From: Capsulimonadaceae bacterium
GTDB lineage: Bacteria > Armatimonadota > Armatimonadia > Armatimonadales > Capsulimonadaceae
DNA: 64,000 bases
NCBI GenBank assembly: GCA_965215505.1
Contig: OZ244065.1
Span: 5,952,001-6,016,000, forward strand
Direction of reading: 5' to 3'
Positions 15,020 to 20,119 of this stretch are shown here, piece by piece. The notes beneath the pieces were generated by a model. The model was given only the letters and a program-made list of their open reading frames with translations. It was not told the origin of the DNA and did no database searches. Positions within the stretch are counted from its first letter, which is position 1. Every line of letters starts with the position of its first letter. Position numbers and translations under genes: made by a program.

Positions 15020-15436
15020 ATGACGAAATTCACAGAAACGCAGACATTTCCAACCATCGCCTACGGTGTATTGGGCCTCTCGGCGGTCGCGGTCGTCTGG
15101 TCGGGACTGCTCTGGCCTGTCCTGCTGCTCGGCATGGCCTTCAATCTGCTCTGCCTGCGGACGACGGTGACGGAGGCGCAGGTGACCGTCCGCTTCGGTG
15201 CCCTGTTCCCGTTGTACCAGCGGAGCATCCCCAAAGCGGACATCGTCTCCTTTGAAGTGGTGACGTACTCGCCCATCGCCGACTACGGCGGCTGGGGCAT
15301 CAAGTGGGGGCGGGGCGGCCTTGCCCTGAACGCGCGCGGCAACCGGGGCGTCCGCCTGACGCTCCGGGATGGCCGCCGTGTCCTGGTCGGCTCGCAGCGG
15401 CCCGGAGAGCTGGCGGCGGCGCTTGGCACGGGTTAG
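15020..15436 (+). CDS. Small membrane protein (YGGWGI motif family)
   Basis: TM pair, YGGWGIK, LVGSQRPGEL. Confidence 0.7.
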   Translation: MTKFTETQTFPTIAYGVLGLSAVAVVWSGLLWPVLLLGMAFNLLCLRTTVTEAQVTVRFGALFPLYQRSIPKADIVSFEVVTYSPIADYGGWGIKWGRGGLALNARGNRGVRLTLRDGRRVLVGSQRPGELAAALGTG

Positions 15437-18042
15437 ATGACCACATTCACCAGCTTGCCGGGGACGACGATGACCTTCTTGGGCGCACCGCCGTTCAAAG
15501 CCTCGGCCACCTTCGGGCTGGCGAGGGCCAGCGCCTGTAAGGTGTCCTGGTCGGCGTCGGCGGGGGCGGTCATCTTGTCGCGCACCTTGCCGTTGACCTG
15601 GACGACGAGGGTGATCTCGTCCTTCTTGGCGACTTCCGGGTCCGCCTGCGGCCAGGAGTGCCGGTAAAGGAAGCCGGCCCGGCCCAGTCCCTCTGTCCAC
15701 AGCTCGTCGGCGAGGTGCGGGGCGAACGGGGCGAGGGCAAGAGTCAGGTACTCGACGGCTTCATCCAGGGCCGCCGAGCGCGCACCGGCCGGCAGGACGT
15801 TGGCGACCTCGTAAGCCATGTTGACCCATTCCATCAGCCCCGCGACTGCCGTGTTGAAGCGGAAGCTTTCCAGGTCGTCGGCGACCCGCAGCAGGGTCTG
15901 ATGCGTCTTGCGTCGCAGGTCCCGGTCTTTGCCGGAAGCCTCGCCCGCCGTGGCCCGCCAGTCCGGAGTCCAGCCCTCGCCCCACGACGCGACCAGGCGG
16001 TAGACGCGGGCAAGGAACTTGGATGATCCCCGGATGCCCTCCTCGCTCCATTGCACGGTCTCTTCAAAGGGGGCGACGAACATCTCGTAGACGCGCAGGC
16101 TGTCTGCACCGAACCGCTCGGCGGCCTCATCGGGTGTGACGACGTTGCCCGCCGACTTGGACATCTTGGCCCACCGGTAAGTGATCTCGGACGGTTCAAA
16201 GCGGGCCAGGTCTTCCGGCTTGACCGCCTTCCAGTCCTCGATCTTCTCCTCGGCTTCCTCCTCGCCTTCTTCACCTGCGGACGGCTTGCGGCCCGGCGTG
16301 TAGGCCAGCATCATGCCCTGGTTCCGCAGGCGGGTGAACGGCTCATCGAAGCCCAGCATCCCGGCATCAAACAGCACCTTGTTCCAGAAGCGGGCGTACA
16401 AGAGGTGCATGACCGCATGTTCCGCGCCGCCGACATAGGTGTCCACGGGCAGCCAGTAATCCACGGCCTCGCGCGAGAAGGGGGCCGCGTCGTCGTGCGG
16501 ATCGGCGAAGCGCAGGAAGTACCACGAGGAGCAGGCGAAGCCCGCCATCGTGTCCGTCTCGCGCCGGGCCGGCTCCCCGCAGATCGGGCAGTTCGTTTCG
16601 ACGAATTCCGCGATGCTCGCCAGCGGCCCCTCGCCCGTCCCGGTCGGCTGGTAATGCTCGACGGGCGGCAGGACGACCGGCAACTGGTCATCGGGAACCG
16701 GCACCTCGCCGTGCGTCGGGCAGTGGATGATCGGGATGGGGACGCCCCAATACCGCTGCCGCGAGAGCAGCCAGTCGCGGAATCGGTAGGTGACGACCGG
16801 CTTGCCTAAGCCATCCGCTTCCAGCCATTCGGCGACTTTTCGCACCGTTTCTTTGCTGTAGGCCAGCCCGTCGAACGGCCCCGAATGGACCAGGACGCCC
16901 TTGTCCGTGGTTGCCGCTGTCATCGTGTCGCCGTCAACCTCCTGCCCCGGCTCCTGATAGACGGGAACGATGGGCAGGCCGAACTTGCGGGCGAAGTCGA
17001 AGTCGCGCTGGTCGTGGGCGGGGACGGCCATGATCGCGCCGGTGCCGTAGCCCATCAGGACGTAGTCGGCGATCCAGACGGGGACAGGCTGCCCGTTGAC
17101 CGGGTTGGTGGCATACGCGCCCGTCCAGACGCCCGTCTTCTCGCGCCCCTCCGCCTGCCGGTCCATCTCCGTCTCGCGCCCCGCCCGCGCCGCATAAGCC
17201 GCCACGGCGTCGCTCTGCTCGGGGGTAGTCAGTGCAGCGACCAGGGGATGCTCGGGGGCGATGACCATGAAGGTCGCCCCCCAGAGCGTGTCCGGGCGCG
17301 TGGTGAAGACGGTGATCGTCTCGCCGCCCGCCTTGAAATGCACCTCCGCGCCCTCGCTCCGCCCGATCCACTTGCGCTGCTGCTGCTTGATGCCCTCGGA
17401 CCAGTCCAGCTTGTCCAGGTCGTTAATCAGGCGGTCGGCGTAGGCCGTGATCTTCAGATACCACTGCGGCATGGCCTTCTTTTCGACCTGCGTCCCGCAA
17501 CGCCAGCACCGGCCGTTGACGACCTCCTCGTTGGCGAGGACCGTCTTGTCCTGCGGGCACCAGTTGACGGGCGCGTTCTGCCGGTAGGCCAGGCCGCGCT
17601 TGTAGAGCAGCAGGAAGATCCACTGCGTCCACTTGTAGTAGGCGGGGTCACTGGAATTGACCTCCCGGTCCCAGTCATAGCCCATGCCGATGAGGTTCAT
17701 CTGCCGCTTGTAAGTGGCCGCGAACTCCGCCACCATCGGGCCGGGGTTGCGCTGCCGCTTGATGGCCTCGTTCTCGGCGGGCTGTCCGAAGGCGTCCCAG
17801 CCCATCGGGTGCAGGACGTTGAAGCCCTGCATCGCCTTCAGCCGCAGGAAGGCATCGGTAGGCGCGTAGTTCTTGAAGTGCCCCACCGACAGCCCCGCGC
17901 CGGAGGGGTAGGGGAAGAACTCCAACCCGTAGTACTTGGGCTTGGTAGGGTCCATTTCGGCGTGGTACAGGTCGGCCTCGGCCCACCGGGCCTGCCACTT
18001 CGCCTCGATCTCGCGGAAGTTATATTTCTCGTCCAACGCCAT
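15433..18042 (-). CDS. leuS: Leucine--tRNA ligase
   Basis: FPYPSG-LSVGH (HIGH-like), MGYGTGAIMAVPAHDQRD, KMSKS. Confidence 0.98.
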   Translation of the reverse strand: MALDEKYNFREIEAKWQARWAEADLYHAEMDPTKPKYYGLEFFPYPSGAGLSVGHFKNYAPTDAFLRLKAMQGFNVLHPMGWDAFGQPAENEAIKRQRNPGPMVAEFAATYKRQMNLIGMGYDWDREVNSSDPAYYKWTQWIFLLLYKRGLAYRQNAPVNWCPQDKTVLANEEVVNGRCWRCGTQVEKKAMPQWYLKITAYADRLINDLDKLDWSEGIKQQQRKWIGRSEGAEVHFKAGGETITVFTTRPDTLWGATFMVIAPEHPLVAALTTPEQSDAVAAYAARAGRETEMDRQAEGREKTGVWTGAYATNPVNGQPVPVWIADYVLMGYGTGAIMAVPAHDQRDFDFARKFGLPIVPVYQEPGQEVDGDTMTAATTDKGVLVHSGPFDGLAYSKETVRKVAEWLEADGLGKPVVTYRFRDWLLSRQRYWGVPIPIIHCPTHGEVPVPDDQLPVVLPPVEHYQPTGTGEGPLASIAEFVETNCPICGEPARRETDTMAGFACSSWYFLRFADPHDDAAPFSREAVDYWLPVDTYVGGAEHAVMHLLYARFWNKVLFDAGMLGFDEPFTRLRNQGMMLAYTPGRKPSAGEEGEEEAEEKIEDWKAVKPEDLARFEPSEITYRWAKMSKSAGNVVTPDEAAERFGADSLRVYEMFVAPFEETVQWSEEGIRGSSKFLARVYRLVASWGEGWTPDWRATAGEASGKDRDLRRKTHQTLLRVADDLESFRFNTAVAGLMEWVNMAYEVANVLPAGARSAALDEAVEYLTLALAPFAPHLADELWTEGLGRAGFLYRHSWPQADPEVAKKDEITLVVQVNGKVRDKMTAPADADQDTLQALALASPKVAEALNGGAPKKVIVVPGKLVNVVI

Positions 18043-18078
18043 TGTGTGTTCGTGCTCGGTTCCTGAGTTGTTGGCTTT

Positions 18079-18108
18079 AGTATACTAGTGGGAGAGGGGG
18101 ATAGTCAA
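18079..18108 (-). promoter_or_regulatory. Sigma70 promoter for leuS
   Basis: TTGACT-N18-TATACT on minus strand. Confidence 0.6.
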
Positions 18109-18161
18109 GGGTACGCATTTGGATGGTGCATTAATACTATATAAATAAATCTGAATTAGTA

Positions 18162-18190
18162 TTGACAAATAATTAAGCATCTAGTATAAT
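18162..18190 (+). promoter_or_regulatory. Perfect-consensus sigma70 promoter of the accessory cassette
   Basis: TTGACA-N17-TATAAT in an AT-rich block; ATAATTAA repeated at 18169 and 18186. Confidence 0.9.
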
Positions 18191-18235
18191 TAAAATACCA
18201 AACGTCAGGAGAACACTATAAACAACTATCTGGTC

Positions 18236-18712
18236 GTGCGACGCGAATATGATGACAATGACAATGTTGCTGAAACACATCCTGAGATGCGCGTGACGGA
18301 CGTTCCCGTGGGAACAACTCTGAAACAAATCAAGGAGGTGTTGACGCAATCAGGACATACTTACCAGTGGGGCCTGTACACGGTGCTTCCAGAAGAAGAG
18401 TGGTATCCCTTAAAGGATATGATAGACCCTCGCGAATACGGAGAACGAGCGGAGCGTCTTCTGTTTTATGAGATAGGCATGGATGTCATCAGCTATGAGG
18501 AGCTACTAGACAAACTCAACGATGAAAAGCGGGTCACCCTGCGCCTTCCTGTCGGCCTTCACTTCGCTCTCTCTCGCGCCTCAGGAGACATGACACTGAA
18601 CGCCTACTGCACCAAAACCCTGGCTGATGCAGTAGGGTACGGTGACCTACCAGAATTTGAAGCCCAGCGCCGGAAACCCGGTCGCCCCAAGAAGGTCCAG
18701 GACGGCGAATAA
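18236..18712 (+). CDS. Putative DNA-binding protein with HicB-type ribbon-helix-helix and AT-hook-like tail
   Basis: KRVTLRLPVGLHFALSRAS..TLNAY; RRKPGRPKK; start codon uncertain. Confidence 0.65.
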   Translation: MRREYDDNDNVAETHPEMRVTDVPVGTTLKQIKEVLTQSGHTYQWGLYTVLPEEEWYPLKDMIDPREYGERAERLLFYEIGMDVISYEELLDKLNDEKRVTLRLPVGLHFALSRASGDMTLNAYCTKTLADAVGYGDLPEFEAQRRKPGRPKKVQDGE

Positions 18713-18723
18713 AGGAGGCGGTC

Positions 18724-19221
18724 ATGAGCGAAGAAACACGCCCGCCTCTGCTCCAACTCGGGGGCGAAGAAGCCCTCAAAGCCTACGAAAAGGAATTCGG
18801 CCAACTGTACCAAAACCGCCGTGTCTACGACATCTTGGGAAACATCGTAGTCTTTCCGCCAGGTTCTTGCTGGCATATCTGCTTCAAGCGCGATGAAGAT
18901 GACCGCTCGGCACGCCGCCCGCGTAACATTTGGTCACAGGAGCGAGCCGAACGCATACCCTGGATCATGTCTGCACTCAATGACCCGCGAACAGAAATAA
19001 GGCCGGATAGGGAGATCGAGAACCGCCTCAACTACTTGTTCATAGTGGAGGCTGATCCCGAACACAACCTGACACAAGAATTCTACTGCGTGGTCGCAGA
19101 AAGGGATATAAGAGGCATAGTGGTTCTCGTGACAGCGTTCCCCATAGACCAAAAAGGCTGGGCTAACCGCCGTCGCGCTGGCAAAGCATTGTATCCCAAC
19201 GTGAAGAAGGGCGAGGCATAA
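18724..19221 (+). CDS. Putative PBECR (Barnase-EndoU-ColE5/D-RelE fold) nuclease toxin
   Basis: Strong AAGGAGG RBS; W-H-ICFK, ERAERIPWI..ALNDP, VVLVTAFP pattern resembles PBECR2-type proteins (by eye). Confidence 0.55.
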   Translation: MSEETRPPLLQLGGEEALKAYEKEFGQLYQNRRVYDILGNIVVFPPGSCWHICFKRDEDDRSARRPRNIWSQERAERIPWIMSALNDPRTEIRPDREIENRLNYLFIVEADPEHNLTQEFYCVVAERDIRGIVVLVTAFPIDQKGWANRRRAGKALYPNVKKGEA

Positions 19222-19242
19222 AGCCTCGCCCTTCTTCTTTTT
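19203..19242. terminator. Intrinsic terminator, probably bidirectional, overlapping the nuclease stop codon
   Basis: 15-bp perfect stem GAAGAAGGGCGAGGC-ATAAA-GCCTCGCCCTTCTTC followed by T-run. Confidence 0.85.
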
Positions 19243-19378
19243 CATTTATGGCCGTAGCAACCCGCCTGGCGGCTATGATCTTTGACGGATTTCTCCGCTT
19301 TCCGGCTCGAAGGCTATTCCAGTTTCCTAGAACCCCGGCTGCCCGACTGCCCCTGATGGGGTCTCCACGGATGGGCAA
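19203..19378 (-). ncRNA. Candidate structured non-coding RNA convergent on the nuclease gene
   Basis: TGCTATAAT extended -10 at 19383-19391 (minus); hairpins TTCTAG-GAAA-CTGGAA, CGGA-GAAA-TCCG, CCCC-ATCA-GGGG within TGCCC/GGGCA; ends at terminator. Confidence 0.5.
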
Positions 19379-19519
19379 TGTTATTATAGCACATTCTATG
19401 AACTTTCCTCATGTTCATTTTCCGAGACAGCTTCGTCCTCAGCATAGGCCGCTCGCTTGAAAGGATTTCCGCCGCCCGGCGGCGAACCTCTGGGCATCAA
19501 CCGCCGAGGAGGCTTTCTT

Positions 19520-20119
19520 ATGTCCATCTCCAATTCACTGCCGATAGTCCCGGAGGAGCCGGGCGATAAAGACCGCGCGGACCTCTGGGAGCGGCTGCGG
19601 ATGCACTACACGCACCCGAAAACGCCCGTCGTCAACGCCAATGAGGTCTACCAGCAGGGGTTAAGCCCGCTGGACAAGCTGGCGGCGGCCATCACCGACA
19701 AGGTCGGCTCGATGGGGTTCTTCCTACTCATCCTGACCTGGACCATCCTGTGGACGGGCTACAACATCCTCGCCTCGGAGGTGCCTGCCCTGCACTGGAA
19801 GTCGTTTGACCCGTTCCCGGCGTTCGTCGCGTACCTGCTGATCAGCAACGTCATCCAGATCCTGCTCATGCCCCTCATCATGGTGGGGCAGAACGTCCAG
19901 AGCCGGCACTCGGAGATCCGGGCGCAGCTTGATTTCGAGATCAACCAAAAGGCCGAGAAGGAGATCGTGGTCATCCTGAAGCATTTGGAACACAACACCG
20001 ACCTGATGATTCATTTGATGCGCCACCTCCAGTGCCAGGTCGCCGACGAAGACCTCCAGGCCATTGCGGCGGAACACGAGGCGGCGGTGAAGCTGGAGCA
20101 GAAGGAAGTGAAGGCTTAG
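19520..20119 (+). CDS. DUF1003-like membrane protein
   Basis: VGSMGFF, FDPFPAF, PLIMVGQN; GAGGAGG RBS. Confidence 0.8.
   Translation: MSISNSLPIVPEEPGDKDRADLWERLRMHYTHPKTPVVNANEVYQQGLSPLDKLAAAITDKVGSMGFFLLILTWTILWTGYNILASEVPALHWKSFDPFPAFVAYLLISNVIQILLMPLIMVGQNVQSRHSEIRAQLDFEINQKAEKEIVVILKHLEHNTDLMIHLMRHLQCQVADEDLQAIAAEHEAAVKLEQKEVKA

Follow-up and report, generated by a model that had tools for sequence, protein, structure and literature searches.

The leuS-adjacent block and its genes

We analysed a stretch of 64,000 nucleotides (nt) from a Capsulimonadaceae bacterium of the phylum Armatimonadota (assembly GCA_965215505.1, contig OZ244065.1, positions 5,952,001 to 6,016,000), referred to here as the window, and in it a low-GC block next to leuS. 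The block carried two open reading frames (ORFs) on the plus strand, ORF1 and ORF2, and a structured RNA on the minus strand, convergent with them. The conserved unit was ORF2, a predicted BECR-fold RNase, together with the RNA, and the ribbon-helix-helix (RHH) protein ORF1 was an add-on in one clade. The features of the block, in window coordinates, were as follows.

18110..19433, no strand: inserted low-GC block with ORF1, ORF2, the common terminator and the RNA gene with its promoter (GC drop; alignment of the relatives G011 and G022)
18134..18187, no strand: inverted repeat ATACTATAT / ATCTAGTAT, 9-nt arms, 89% complementary
18162..18190, plus strand: operon promoter TTGACA-17-TATAAT, matching the consensus at 12/12 positions
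18236..18712, plus strand: ORF1, HicB-related RHH protein with a C-terminal AT-hook, 158 amino acids (aa) from GTG 18236
18524..18640, plus strand: RHH-like segment of ORF1, residues 97-135, EKRVTLRLP and then two helices (conservation; structure model)
18671..18694, plus strand: AT-hook RKPGRPKK of ORF1, residues 146-153 (conservation)
18724..19221, plus strand: ORF2, predicted BECR-fold endoribonuclease related to PBECR2 and PADLOC PDC-M04B, 165 aa
19203..19237, no strand: 15-bp GC-rich hairpin, common to both predicted convergent transcripts (hairpin scan)
19250..19378, minus strand: structured RNA core, 129 nt (covariance-model matches of 144.9 and 145.1 bits; pair counts; RNAalifold)
19383..19391, minus strand: extended -10 TGCTATAAT of the RNA gene (sequence; position kept in 13/28 loci)

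ORF2 matched the Pfam family PBECR2 (PF18810) at 22.8 bits (E=1.2e-4), a family that was also matched by 13 of the 27 aligned ORF2 relatives at E<=0.01, the best at 1.1e-5. The PDC-M04B models of PADLOC matched all 27 aligned relatives, with E=7.3e-9 for the window protein and 1.7e-12 for the best relative. The AlphaFold model of ORF2 was confident (predicted local distance difference test 90.5, predicted template modelling score 0.86) and showed a helix at residues 48-53 and strands at 91-94, 101-108, 119-127 and 133-141, along with an additional N-terminal helix of about 30 residues. Foldseek against the PDB returned weak rows only (best E=0.027). A wide search with VIA-align, independent of Foldseek and covering 48,161 chains, yielded a list headed almost entirely by BECR-fold toxins, with 7vd7_A, a Salmonella toxin (Z 6.3), BrnT (5.2) and colicin D (4.9) at the top, CdiA-CT (4.8) and RelE (4.8) further down, and YafQ, YoeB, HigB and ParE also present. 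It was the consistency of this list, the Z values being middling, that argued structurally for a BECR fold in the model.

H51 was invariant in 27/27 ORF2 sequences and T137 was conserved in at least 90%; in the structure model, H51 lay in helix 48-53 and T137 in the last strand, 133-141. Iyer et al. 2017 (PMC5512222) give the active site of PBECR and colicin D as a His in the helix and a Ser/Thr in strand 4. The modelled placement of H51 and T137 equals this arrangement. The family was rare: of 1.84 billion cluster representatives, 249 matched at E<=0.001 and 101 at E<=1e-10. ORF2 did not stand in a phage or conjugative context as part of a polyvalent protein or a MuF or portal fusion; it was a solo gene between leuS and a DUF1003 gene. 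In five loci (L010, L011, L025, L114 and L105), the ORF2 homologue was split over two frames, either as a frameshifted pseudogene or through assembly error, and the RNA beside the split gene still scored well in L010, L011 and L105.

A promoter scan of the region listed two promoter-like sites, compared to 0.9 +/- 1.0 in shuffles. The inverted repeat bracketed the -35 and overlapped the -10 of the operon promoter, and from its position could possibly be an operator for ORF1. The frame of ORF1 was open from 18194. Homologues of ORF1 start with M-K/E-D/N-Y/F-L-V-V, and at the place of their ATG the window has ATA 18218 (…ATA AAC AAC TAT CTG GTC GTG…), which lies 4 nt past AGGAGA; the collection copy of the window's ORF1 protein (P0052) has 141 aa, implying a start at ATG 18287. 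Judging from the reading frame, ORF1 may start at the rare ATA 18218, at GTG 18236 or at ATG 18287. The gap between ORF1 and ORF2 was 11 nt.

In the window's ORF1 and 25 aligned relatives, the motif EKRxTLRLPxxLH, a strand followed by a helix, was invariant (E97, K98, R99, T101, L102, R103, P105 and H109) and a second helix came after it. The C-terminal FEAQRRKPGRPKKVQ was an AT-hook, almost invariant across the family (RRKPGRPKK), with P148 and G149 invariant and R146, K147, R150, P151, K152 and K153 conserved in at least 90% of the 26 sequences. The structure model had three strands and a helix at the N-terminus, then helices at 106-116 and 121-133. Pfam HicB (PF05534) was matched by 7/26 family members (best E=4.9e-6). 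The window's ORF1 itself matched no Pfam family at E<=1 and no PADLOC model, nor did any of the 26 family proteins match a PADLOC model; its sole PHROG row, phrog_14660 at E=0.18, was not credible, and Foldseek of the whole model (predicted template modelling score 0.49) gave nothing meaningful (best E=1.0). A complex prediction for ORF1 and ORF2, made without controls, scored 0.00 and is evidence in neither direction. Equal longest-contig sizes in more than 10 ORF1/ORF2 cases suggested that ORF1 and ORF2-family relatives share contigs.

The gene leuS lay on the minus strand at 15433..18042, with a promoter-like site, TTGACT-18-TATACT, directly upstream (18108..18079, minus strand). This site sat within a C/G-rich spacer (TTGACTATCCCCC…GTATACT) and was seen again upstream of leuS in G016, G013, G011 and G022. 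GC content was 0.41-0.56 over 18000-19500, compared to 0.62-0.71 in the flanks. In the close relatives G011 and G022, whose leuS N-termini were 93-94% identical to that of the window, the alignment to the window ended at 18109 and resumed at 19434/19440, with only about 166-196 nt intervening. Because these relatives align only on either side of it, 18110..19433 is one insertion/deletion unit, the non-coding stretch included. The G011 remnant (L121 1267-1434) retained nothing of the RNA gene but its -10 box and some 16 nt of the 5' end; because these remain, G011 is a deletion derivative and not an empty site. In G022 (L122 785-981), the first 43 or so codons of a gene for a 186-aa protein with two transmembrane (TM) segments were fused at the RNA -10 region, so that two close relatives of the window's genome showed two distinct deletions at one locus. 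To the right of the block, the DUF1003 gene was open from 19457, with an ATG at 19521 and its end at 20119 (Pfam E=1.5e-22).

An earlier model-made description of this DNA, the sequence-only reading, had placed here an AT-richer island of about 1.3 kb beside leuS with a perfect TTGACA-N17-TATAAT promoter, two tightly linked ORFs and a 15-bp hairpin over the second stop codon, and the composition, the relatives without the block, the consensus match, the short gap and the TAA in the hairpin loop bore this out. Its view of ORF1 as an RHH/AT-hook protein agreed with the conserved KRxTLRLP strand, the two helices and the near-invariant hook, while its PBECR call for ORF2, made by eye, gained backing from the sub-cut-off PF18810 match, the confident model and the BECR toxin matches.

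A structured RNA convergent with ORF2

The first hint of an RNA was that some annotated ORF2 homologues ran past the stop codon, their tails being peptides of window 19248-19380. The DNA downstream of ORF2 was 72-87% identical to the window in 12 related loci, whereas the ORF2 proteins were only 50-63% identical. The roughly 175 nt after ORF2 held no conserved coding sequence, and the homologous stretches differed from one another through compensatory base changes and through indels the size of a hairpin. The survey of the RNA covered some 500 genomes and a few contigs from metagenomes. A first covariance model, R1, was built from 11 copies. RNA position p corresponds to window coordinate 19379-p (1 = 19378, 129 = 19250), and the helices, all on the minus strand, were the following.

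Pa, RNA 3-6 / 35-38: crosses Pb, giving a pseudoknot
Pb, RNA 9-14 / 122-127: long-range closing stem
Pc, RNA 18-21 / 26-29: length differs between copies
Pf, RNA 40-42 / 113-115
Pd, RNA 47-52 / 57-62: GNRA loop
Pg, RNA 75-77 / 107-109
Pe, RNA 81-85 / 90-94: missing in one clade, larger in others

Because Pa crosses Pb, the RNA is modelled as a pseudoknot. On a plain MAFFT alignment of 11 copies, RNAalifold returned 29 pairs, 14 of them with compensatory changes. Under the seven-helix model, 97.7% of the pair cells were standard in 21 sequences and 21/31 pairs had changed on both sides; in 28 sequences from two phyla, 96.8% of the cells were paired and 25/31 pairs had changed on both sides. With the partners slid by 1-3 columns, only 34-50% (21 sequences) or 37-46% (28 sequences) of the cells were paired. 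No shuffle reached any of the pairing measures (0/500 for either set), a statistic inflated by the relatedness of the sequences. Helices Pa, Pf and Pg were not in R1, which made the alignment for the 21-sequence count (A5), and Pa was not in the second model, R2, which made that for the 28-sequence count (A7). Two other pairings, a helix 41-43 / 115-117 and the RNAalifold pairing of 53-58 with 112-117, were replaced by registers with better support.

Junction nucleotides were strongly conserved, more than the helices demand. G-U pairs made up 55/613 cells in the 21-sequence count; because these would be C-A mismatches on the plus strand, and because a -10 box was conserved on the minus strand, the RNA was assigned to the minus strand. 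No Rfam 15 family reached its gathering score in the window, which gave only sub-threshold matches on the terminator hairpin, and a scan of six other RNA loci gave one sub-threshold match only. The alphaproteobacterial small RNA family ar35 scored 25.9 bits at window 19117-19240 and 33.7 bits at L022 1375-1496, both on the plus strand and below the gathering score of 45; these matches, on the 3' end of the convergent ORF and the common hairpin, were probably driven by the terminator. There was no tandem-repeat array in the RNA region, where Tandem Repeats Finder gave two trivial rows of 15-19 nt. The RNA is a new family with good support from covariation.

The extended -10 of the RNA gene placed its predicted transcription start near 19376-19378. 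The consensus promoter scan did not list this site, its -35 being poor. A TANNNT box stood at the identical distance, 4 nt before RNA position 1, in 13/28 homologous loci, and CATAAT or CATAAC occupied the position in two more; in 10 further loci the box lay 11-40 nt more upstream (24-40 nt in nine), several times behind an extra 5' hairpin. The sequence-only reading had noted a stretch without a credible coding sequence, an opposite-strand promoter and a convergent structured RNA, and its check asked for a covarying downstream element among ORF2 homologues; all four were recovered, the promoter as an extended -10 at 19391..19383 and the covarying element in two phyla.

Between the two convergent genes lay the 15-bp hairpin, with the ORF2 TAA stop in its loop and TTTTTCATTT, a T-run, after it. 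A hairpin was found between ORF2 and the RNA in every homologous locus examined, and several loci had A-runs before and T-runs after it, as in bidirectional terminators. From these features, the hairpin is predicted to terminate ORF2 and, in most loci, the RNA too.

The shared hairpin raised the question of a type I-like antisense control, in which the RNA would act on the ORF2 mRNA via terminator overlap or read-through and cause mRNA decay or transcriptional interference. The convergent genes with one hairpin between them in every locus examined fit such a control, as do the position of the window hairpin over the last ORF2 codons and the stop and the bidirectional A- and T-runs. Antisense action would not, however, need the conserved 129-nt core, whose seven covarying helices lie entirely outside the overlap; the ribosome-binding region of ORF2 was not conserved and there was no conserved complementarity to the RNA; and ORF2 is no small hydrophobic peptide but a soluble, RNase-like protein of 165 aa. 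We consider antisense control unlikely. Inhibition at the protein level is favoured over it because the conserved pseudoknotted core lies outside the transcript overlap and because conserved complementarity to the mRNA was lacking. Complementarity of the RNA to the ORF2 ribosome-binding site was also considered and rejected: GGCGG stands opposite GCCGCC in the window, and the site was not conserved elsewhere.

Linkage of ORF2, the RNA and ORF1

The RNA followed ORF2 beyond the loci from which its model was made. R1 found the RNA beside ORF2 in two loci outside its seed, L004 (48.8 bits) and L005 (34.9 bits), which belong to one Isosphaeraceae (Planctomycetota) genome and one Chthonomonadaceae genome. 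A search for ORF2 in the order of the Isosphaeraceae genome gave 10 loci in 9/121 genomes, and R2 matched the RNA directly downstream of ORF2, convergent, in 9/10 of these (weakest 20.9 bits); the single miss, L116, was an ORF2 pseudogene with two stop codons. Over the distinct loci found via ORF2, the RNA was present and convergent in 22/25 at E<=0.01, two of them weakly, including 8/9 additional Planctomycetota loci. The three loci without it had a truncated ORF2 (L009), the pseudogene (L116) and an intact distant relative with 28% identity (L012/L013), and no intact close relative of ORF2 without the RNA was found among the 25 distinct loci.

ORF1 was far less constant. Its profile matched 6/26 ORF2 loci, the window included, leaving 20/26 without it, and matched in none of the Planctomycetota ORF2 loci; in L008, ORF2 came directly after ispH with no small upstream gene. 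Because the RNA was present in 22/25 loci and ORF1 in only 6/26, the conserved unit is the RNase and the RNA. The sequence-only reading had envisaged a nuclease with both a protein regulator and a dedicated non-coding RNA; the RNA part stood, being linked to ORF2 in two phyla, while the regulator fell outside the conserved core. One contig in the collection, L003, is labelled as a Janthinobacterium lividum metagenome-assembled genome, and its tblastn and blastn statistics equalled those of L014/L028 (G018, from the window's Armatimonadota genus); the public label looks wrong, and L003 and the G018 contig look like the same sequence.

The RNA was also found without ORF2. It occurred in 12/24 genomes of the window's own genus, 15/71 of the order and 6/151 of the phylum sample, with one copy in the window's genome, and ORF2 occurred in 5/24 genus genomes. 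Among the loci found via the RNA, 7/18 had ORF2 and 11/18 did not. Truncation or internal deletion affected 4/11 of these orphan RNAs (G013, the second G008 copy, G021 and G003), while the orphan in G012 lacked the -10 box and that in G035 lacked the 3' strand of Pa. Ten loci had the RNA upstream of leuS and in the same orientation, and the interval between the RNA terminator and the leuS promoter held the following.

ORF1 and ORF2: G000, G018, L006, L010
186-aa two-TM protein: G005, G004
95-aa two-TM ORF: G016
256-aa ORF on the strand of the RNA: G012
nothing: G027, G013

The 186-aa two-TM protein (ORF-X) was the normal divergent neighbour of leuS in the genus, also where there was no RNA, and an R2 search of 16 leuS loci found no RNA. 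We therefore set ORF-X aside as a further genuine partner of the RNA and judged its association positional. No match below E=0.05 came from scanning ORF-X, the 95-aa ORF and the 256-aa ORF against Pfam and PADLOC. The RNA as a leuS leader was likewise rejected, since a conserved promoter of its own precedes leuS, and the RNA, which has a terminator of its own, also occurs far from leuS. A phage origin of the RNA was rejected as well: a pattern scan of viral contigs gave 69 matches, and 0/69 passed R1 at E<=0.1.

Several rearranged copies were observed. In L032 (G021, 1495-1629), a promoter-bearing 5' half of the RNA ran directly into a same-strand ORF (MLNDQDLSALIADLESDRVERTES…), the 3' half being replaced; this remnant would serve as a 5' leader of the adjoining gene. 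L026 (1501-1620), the second G008 copy, had only the 3' half of the RNA and the terminator, convergent with a gene for a 187-aa protein related to the two-TM protein, and lay far from both leuS and the ORF2-RNA copy of G008. In L027 (G004, about 1255-1455) and L030 (G005, about 1290-1450), read with the RNA on the minus strand, a long inverted repeat, imperfect and with arms of about 45-50 nt (GAACCATGC…GGCTACC… / …GGTAGCC…GCATGGTTC), separated the stop codon of the 186-aa gene from the RNA terminator, and L033 had a single arm. Short GC-rich palindromic repeats CCCCCATTATTGGGGG lay near the RNA or leuS in L022 (1700-1900) and L024 (1670-1810), from G016 and G013; they look like repetitive extragenic palindromic (REP)-type elements.

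This varied neighbourhood bears on two alternatives. ORF1 and ORF2 could be an ordinary type II pair and the RNA an independent small RNA gene marking a hotspot beside leuS, with adjacency purely positional. The RNA did stand upstream of leuS in 10 loci with differing cargo or none, it lacked ORF2 in 11/18 of its loci, ORF1 resembles RHH antitoxins and the operon comes with a promoter of its own. Yet ORF2 and the RNA also stayed paired at loci away from leuS, as well as in a second phylum whose loci yielded no ORF1; in G000, the RNA belonged to the ORF1-ORF2 indel block; and with ORF1 missing from 20/26 ORF2 loci, most toxin genes would be left without an antidote. We therefore regard an ordinary type II pair beside an unrelated RNA as quite improbable. 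In the other alternative, the conserved element would act at the DNA level, for instance as a recombination site formed by a folded single strand, as integron attC is, through which the neighbouring cargo is exchanged. The cargo between leuS and the element did differ among close relatives, half-copies occurred in G008 and G021, and the long-range stem Pb closes the element. Against this, the element was single in the window's genome, with no array of copies seen, and the ORFs around it in the loci examined included no integrase, although no search aimed at integrases was made; a conserved -10 box just upstream and a terminator just downstream lay on the folding strand, and GNRA tetraloops and a pseudoknot are typical of RNA. 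A role as DNA seems highly improbable to us. The simplest history would be that an ORF1-ORF2-RNA module settled beside leuS in the window's lineage and that several descendants then lost or exchanged the protein genes, leaving slowly decaying RNA genes.

We tentatively read the block as a small accessory toxin-antitoxin-like module in which the RNA binds the ORF2 protein and holds the RNase inactive in a type III-like manner, an account that we lean towards while rating it a little short of probable. Its core would pair the BECR-fold endoribonuclease ORF2 with the convergent pseudoknotted RNA, which would be about 130-190 nt long and start from a promoter of its own, and the two transcripts would have one terminator hairpin in common. 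We infer that the RNA is transcribed and that ORF2 is toxic; the RNA would fold into a specific shape, bind the ORF2 protein and keep it inactive. If RNA synthesis stopped or the RNA were degraded, as might happen when a phage infects or the locus is lost, the freed RNase would cut cellular or phage RNA, and the module may have a role in defence. In the window's clade, the HicB-related RHH/AT-hook protein ORF1 would have been added upstream in the same operon. It would bind DNA and most likely repress the operon promoter, which is very strong; it may bind the toxin as well, in which case the copy would be tripartite. The RNA is cast as the antidote and the RNase as the toxin because intact close relatives of ORF2 always came with the RNA, because the RNA tolerated the loss of ORF2 and because most loci had no protein partner.

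The same close linkage could be expected if the RNA were a substrate, cofactor or sensor of the RNase, in a ribonucleoprotein in which it is processed by, targets or activates ORF2 as part of a defence system. The near-obligate pairing of gene and RNA (22/25 loci), the conservation of junction nucleotides past helix needs and the match of 27/27 ORF2 relatives to the PADLOC defence candidate PDC-M04B are all compatible with this. A protective RNA is the better fit, however, to the persistence of orphan RNAs and to the state of ORF2 where the RNA is missing, broken in 2/3 loci and a distant relative in the third; moreover, PDC-M04 is itself a candidate system on which no paper was found, and ORF1 proteins gave 0/26 PADLOC matches. 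We rate such a role as rather unlikely. A stronger version, in which the RNA is a working partner, a sensor or cofactor RNA in a ribonucleoprotein with the BECR nuclease that decides when and what the nuclease cuts, we also hold to be unlikely, and somewhat more so. If it were true, the locus would represent a new RNA-dependent defence module in Armatimonadota and Planctomycetota, the HicB-like repressor would be a second control layer in the window's clade, and the intact orphan RNAs would be kept for an activity of the RNA itself.

Some observations weigh against our preferred account of an RNA antidote to a BECR-fold toxin. The PF18810 score of ORF2 fell below the gathering cut-off of 27.1 bits, and structural Z values of 4-6.3 are middling and can mean a common arrangement only. 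Most of the helices were already in the models to which alignments A5 and A7 had been fitted, and kinship among the aligned sequences inflates the shuffle statistics. On the minus strand, the window hairpin was followed by a weak U-run (CUUCUUCACGUU), and termination of the RNA there is assumed. The orphan RNAs in G016, G004 and G018:C135 look intact, with the -10 box kept, and given these three the RNA may have a function independent of ORF2. In the genus, the RNA often lay at a single locus beside leuS with varied neighbours, and its spread is thus partly positional.

The module occurs in two little-studied phyla. Its RNA family is open to modelling and searching, and the rare ORF2 protein family gains a testable partner. 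If the antidote account holds, one natural variant, that of the window's clade, joins RNA control and protein control of one toxin.

Comparison with known systems

The protein components resemble families of known toxins and antitoxins in part. Like PBECR2 and colicin D as described in PMC5512222, modelled ORF2 has a helix followed by four strands, with H51 in the helix and T137 in the last strand. Unlike PBECR2, it scores below the Pfam cut-off, is a solo chromosomal gene and has the additional N-terminal helix; the passages of PMC5512222 on PBECR mention no RNA partner. ORF2 and all 27 relatives match PDC-M04B of PADLOC PDC-M04 (PADLOC-DB v2.0.0), but no A component matches ORF1, the ORF1 family of 26 proteins matching no PADLOC model. 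Literature searches returned no paper on PDC-M04 and, as judged by titles and the starts of abstracts, nothing on an RNA partner for a BECR toxin.

ORF1 resembles HicB and RHH antitoxins of type II systems in its N-terminal beta-beta-beta-alpha domain and the strand-helix-helix DNA-binding region that follows, and the arrangement is type II-like in having ORF1 upstream of the predicted toxin in one operon with a strong promoter flanked by an inverted repeat. In contrast to HicB systems, the window's ORF1 has no Pfam match, its partner is not a HicA-type toxin, it carries the near-invariant C-terminal AT-hook and it is missing from 20/26 loci. Because of this absence, the module is not plainly type II.

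In type I systems such as txpA/RatA and bsrG/SR4 of B. subtilis, convergent antitoxin RNAs overlap the 3' end of the toxin mRNA. The RNA gene of the window is similarly convergent with the presumed toxin gene, and the predicted transcripts meet at their 3' ends. Here, however, the two would share no more than the 35-nt terminator hairpin, with the conserved part of the RNA falling outside this overlap, and ORF2 is a 165-aa RNase-like protein rather than a small membrane peptide toxin. We do not class the module as type I, since it has neither a small hydrophobic peptide as toxin nor an extended antisense overlap.

Type III systems (ToxIN, CptIN and TenpIN) consist of an endoribonuclease toxin and an adjacent structured, pseudoknotted RNA antitoxin behind a terminator. 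The window likewise encodes a predicted RNase and a dedicated pseudoknotted RNA side by side with a terminator between them, and RNA-protein inhibition is proposed here by analogy. The differences are that the window RNA has no tandem repeats and is a single unit of 129-190 nt; that it lies downstream, convergent and with its own promoter, whereas type III RNA lies upstream in the same operon; and that ORF2 has a predicted BECR fold in place of the ToxN/AbiQ fold. The sequence-only reading had described a layout fitting neither standard type II nor type III, and with no repeat array, a convergent RNA and ORF1 in only 6/26 loci, this description was apt. By analogy, the module would work like type III while failing its defining features. 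To our knowledge, RNA antitoxins acting on the toxin protein are known from only three related families, all of them repeat arrays with ToxN-like toxins. If our account is true, the block beside leuS represents a different solution, in which a BECR-fold RNase is paired with a large pseudoknotted RNA that forms a single unit and has a promoter of its own.

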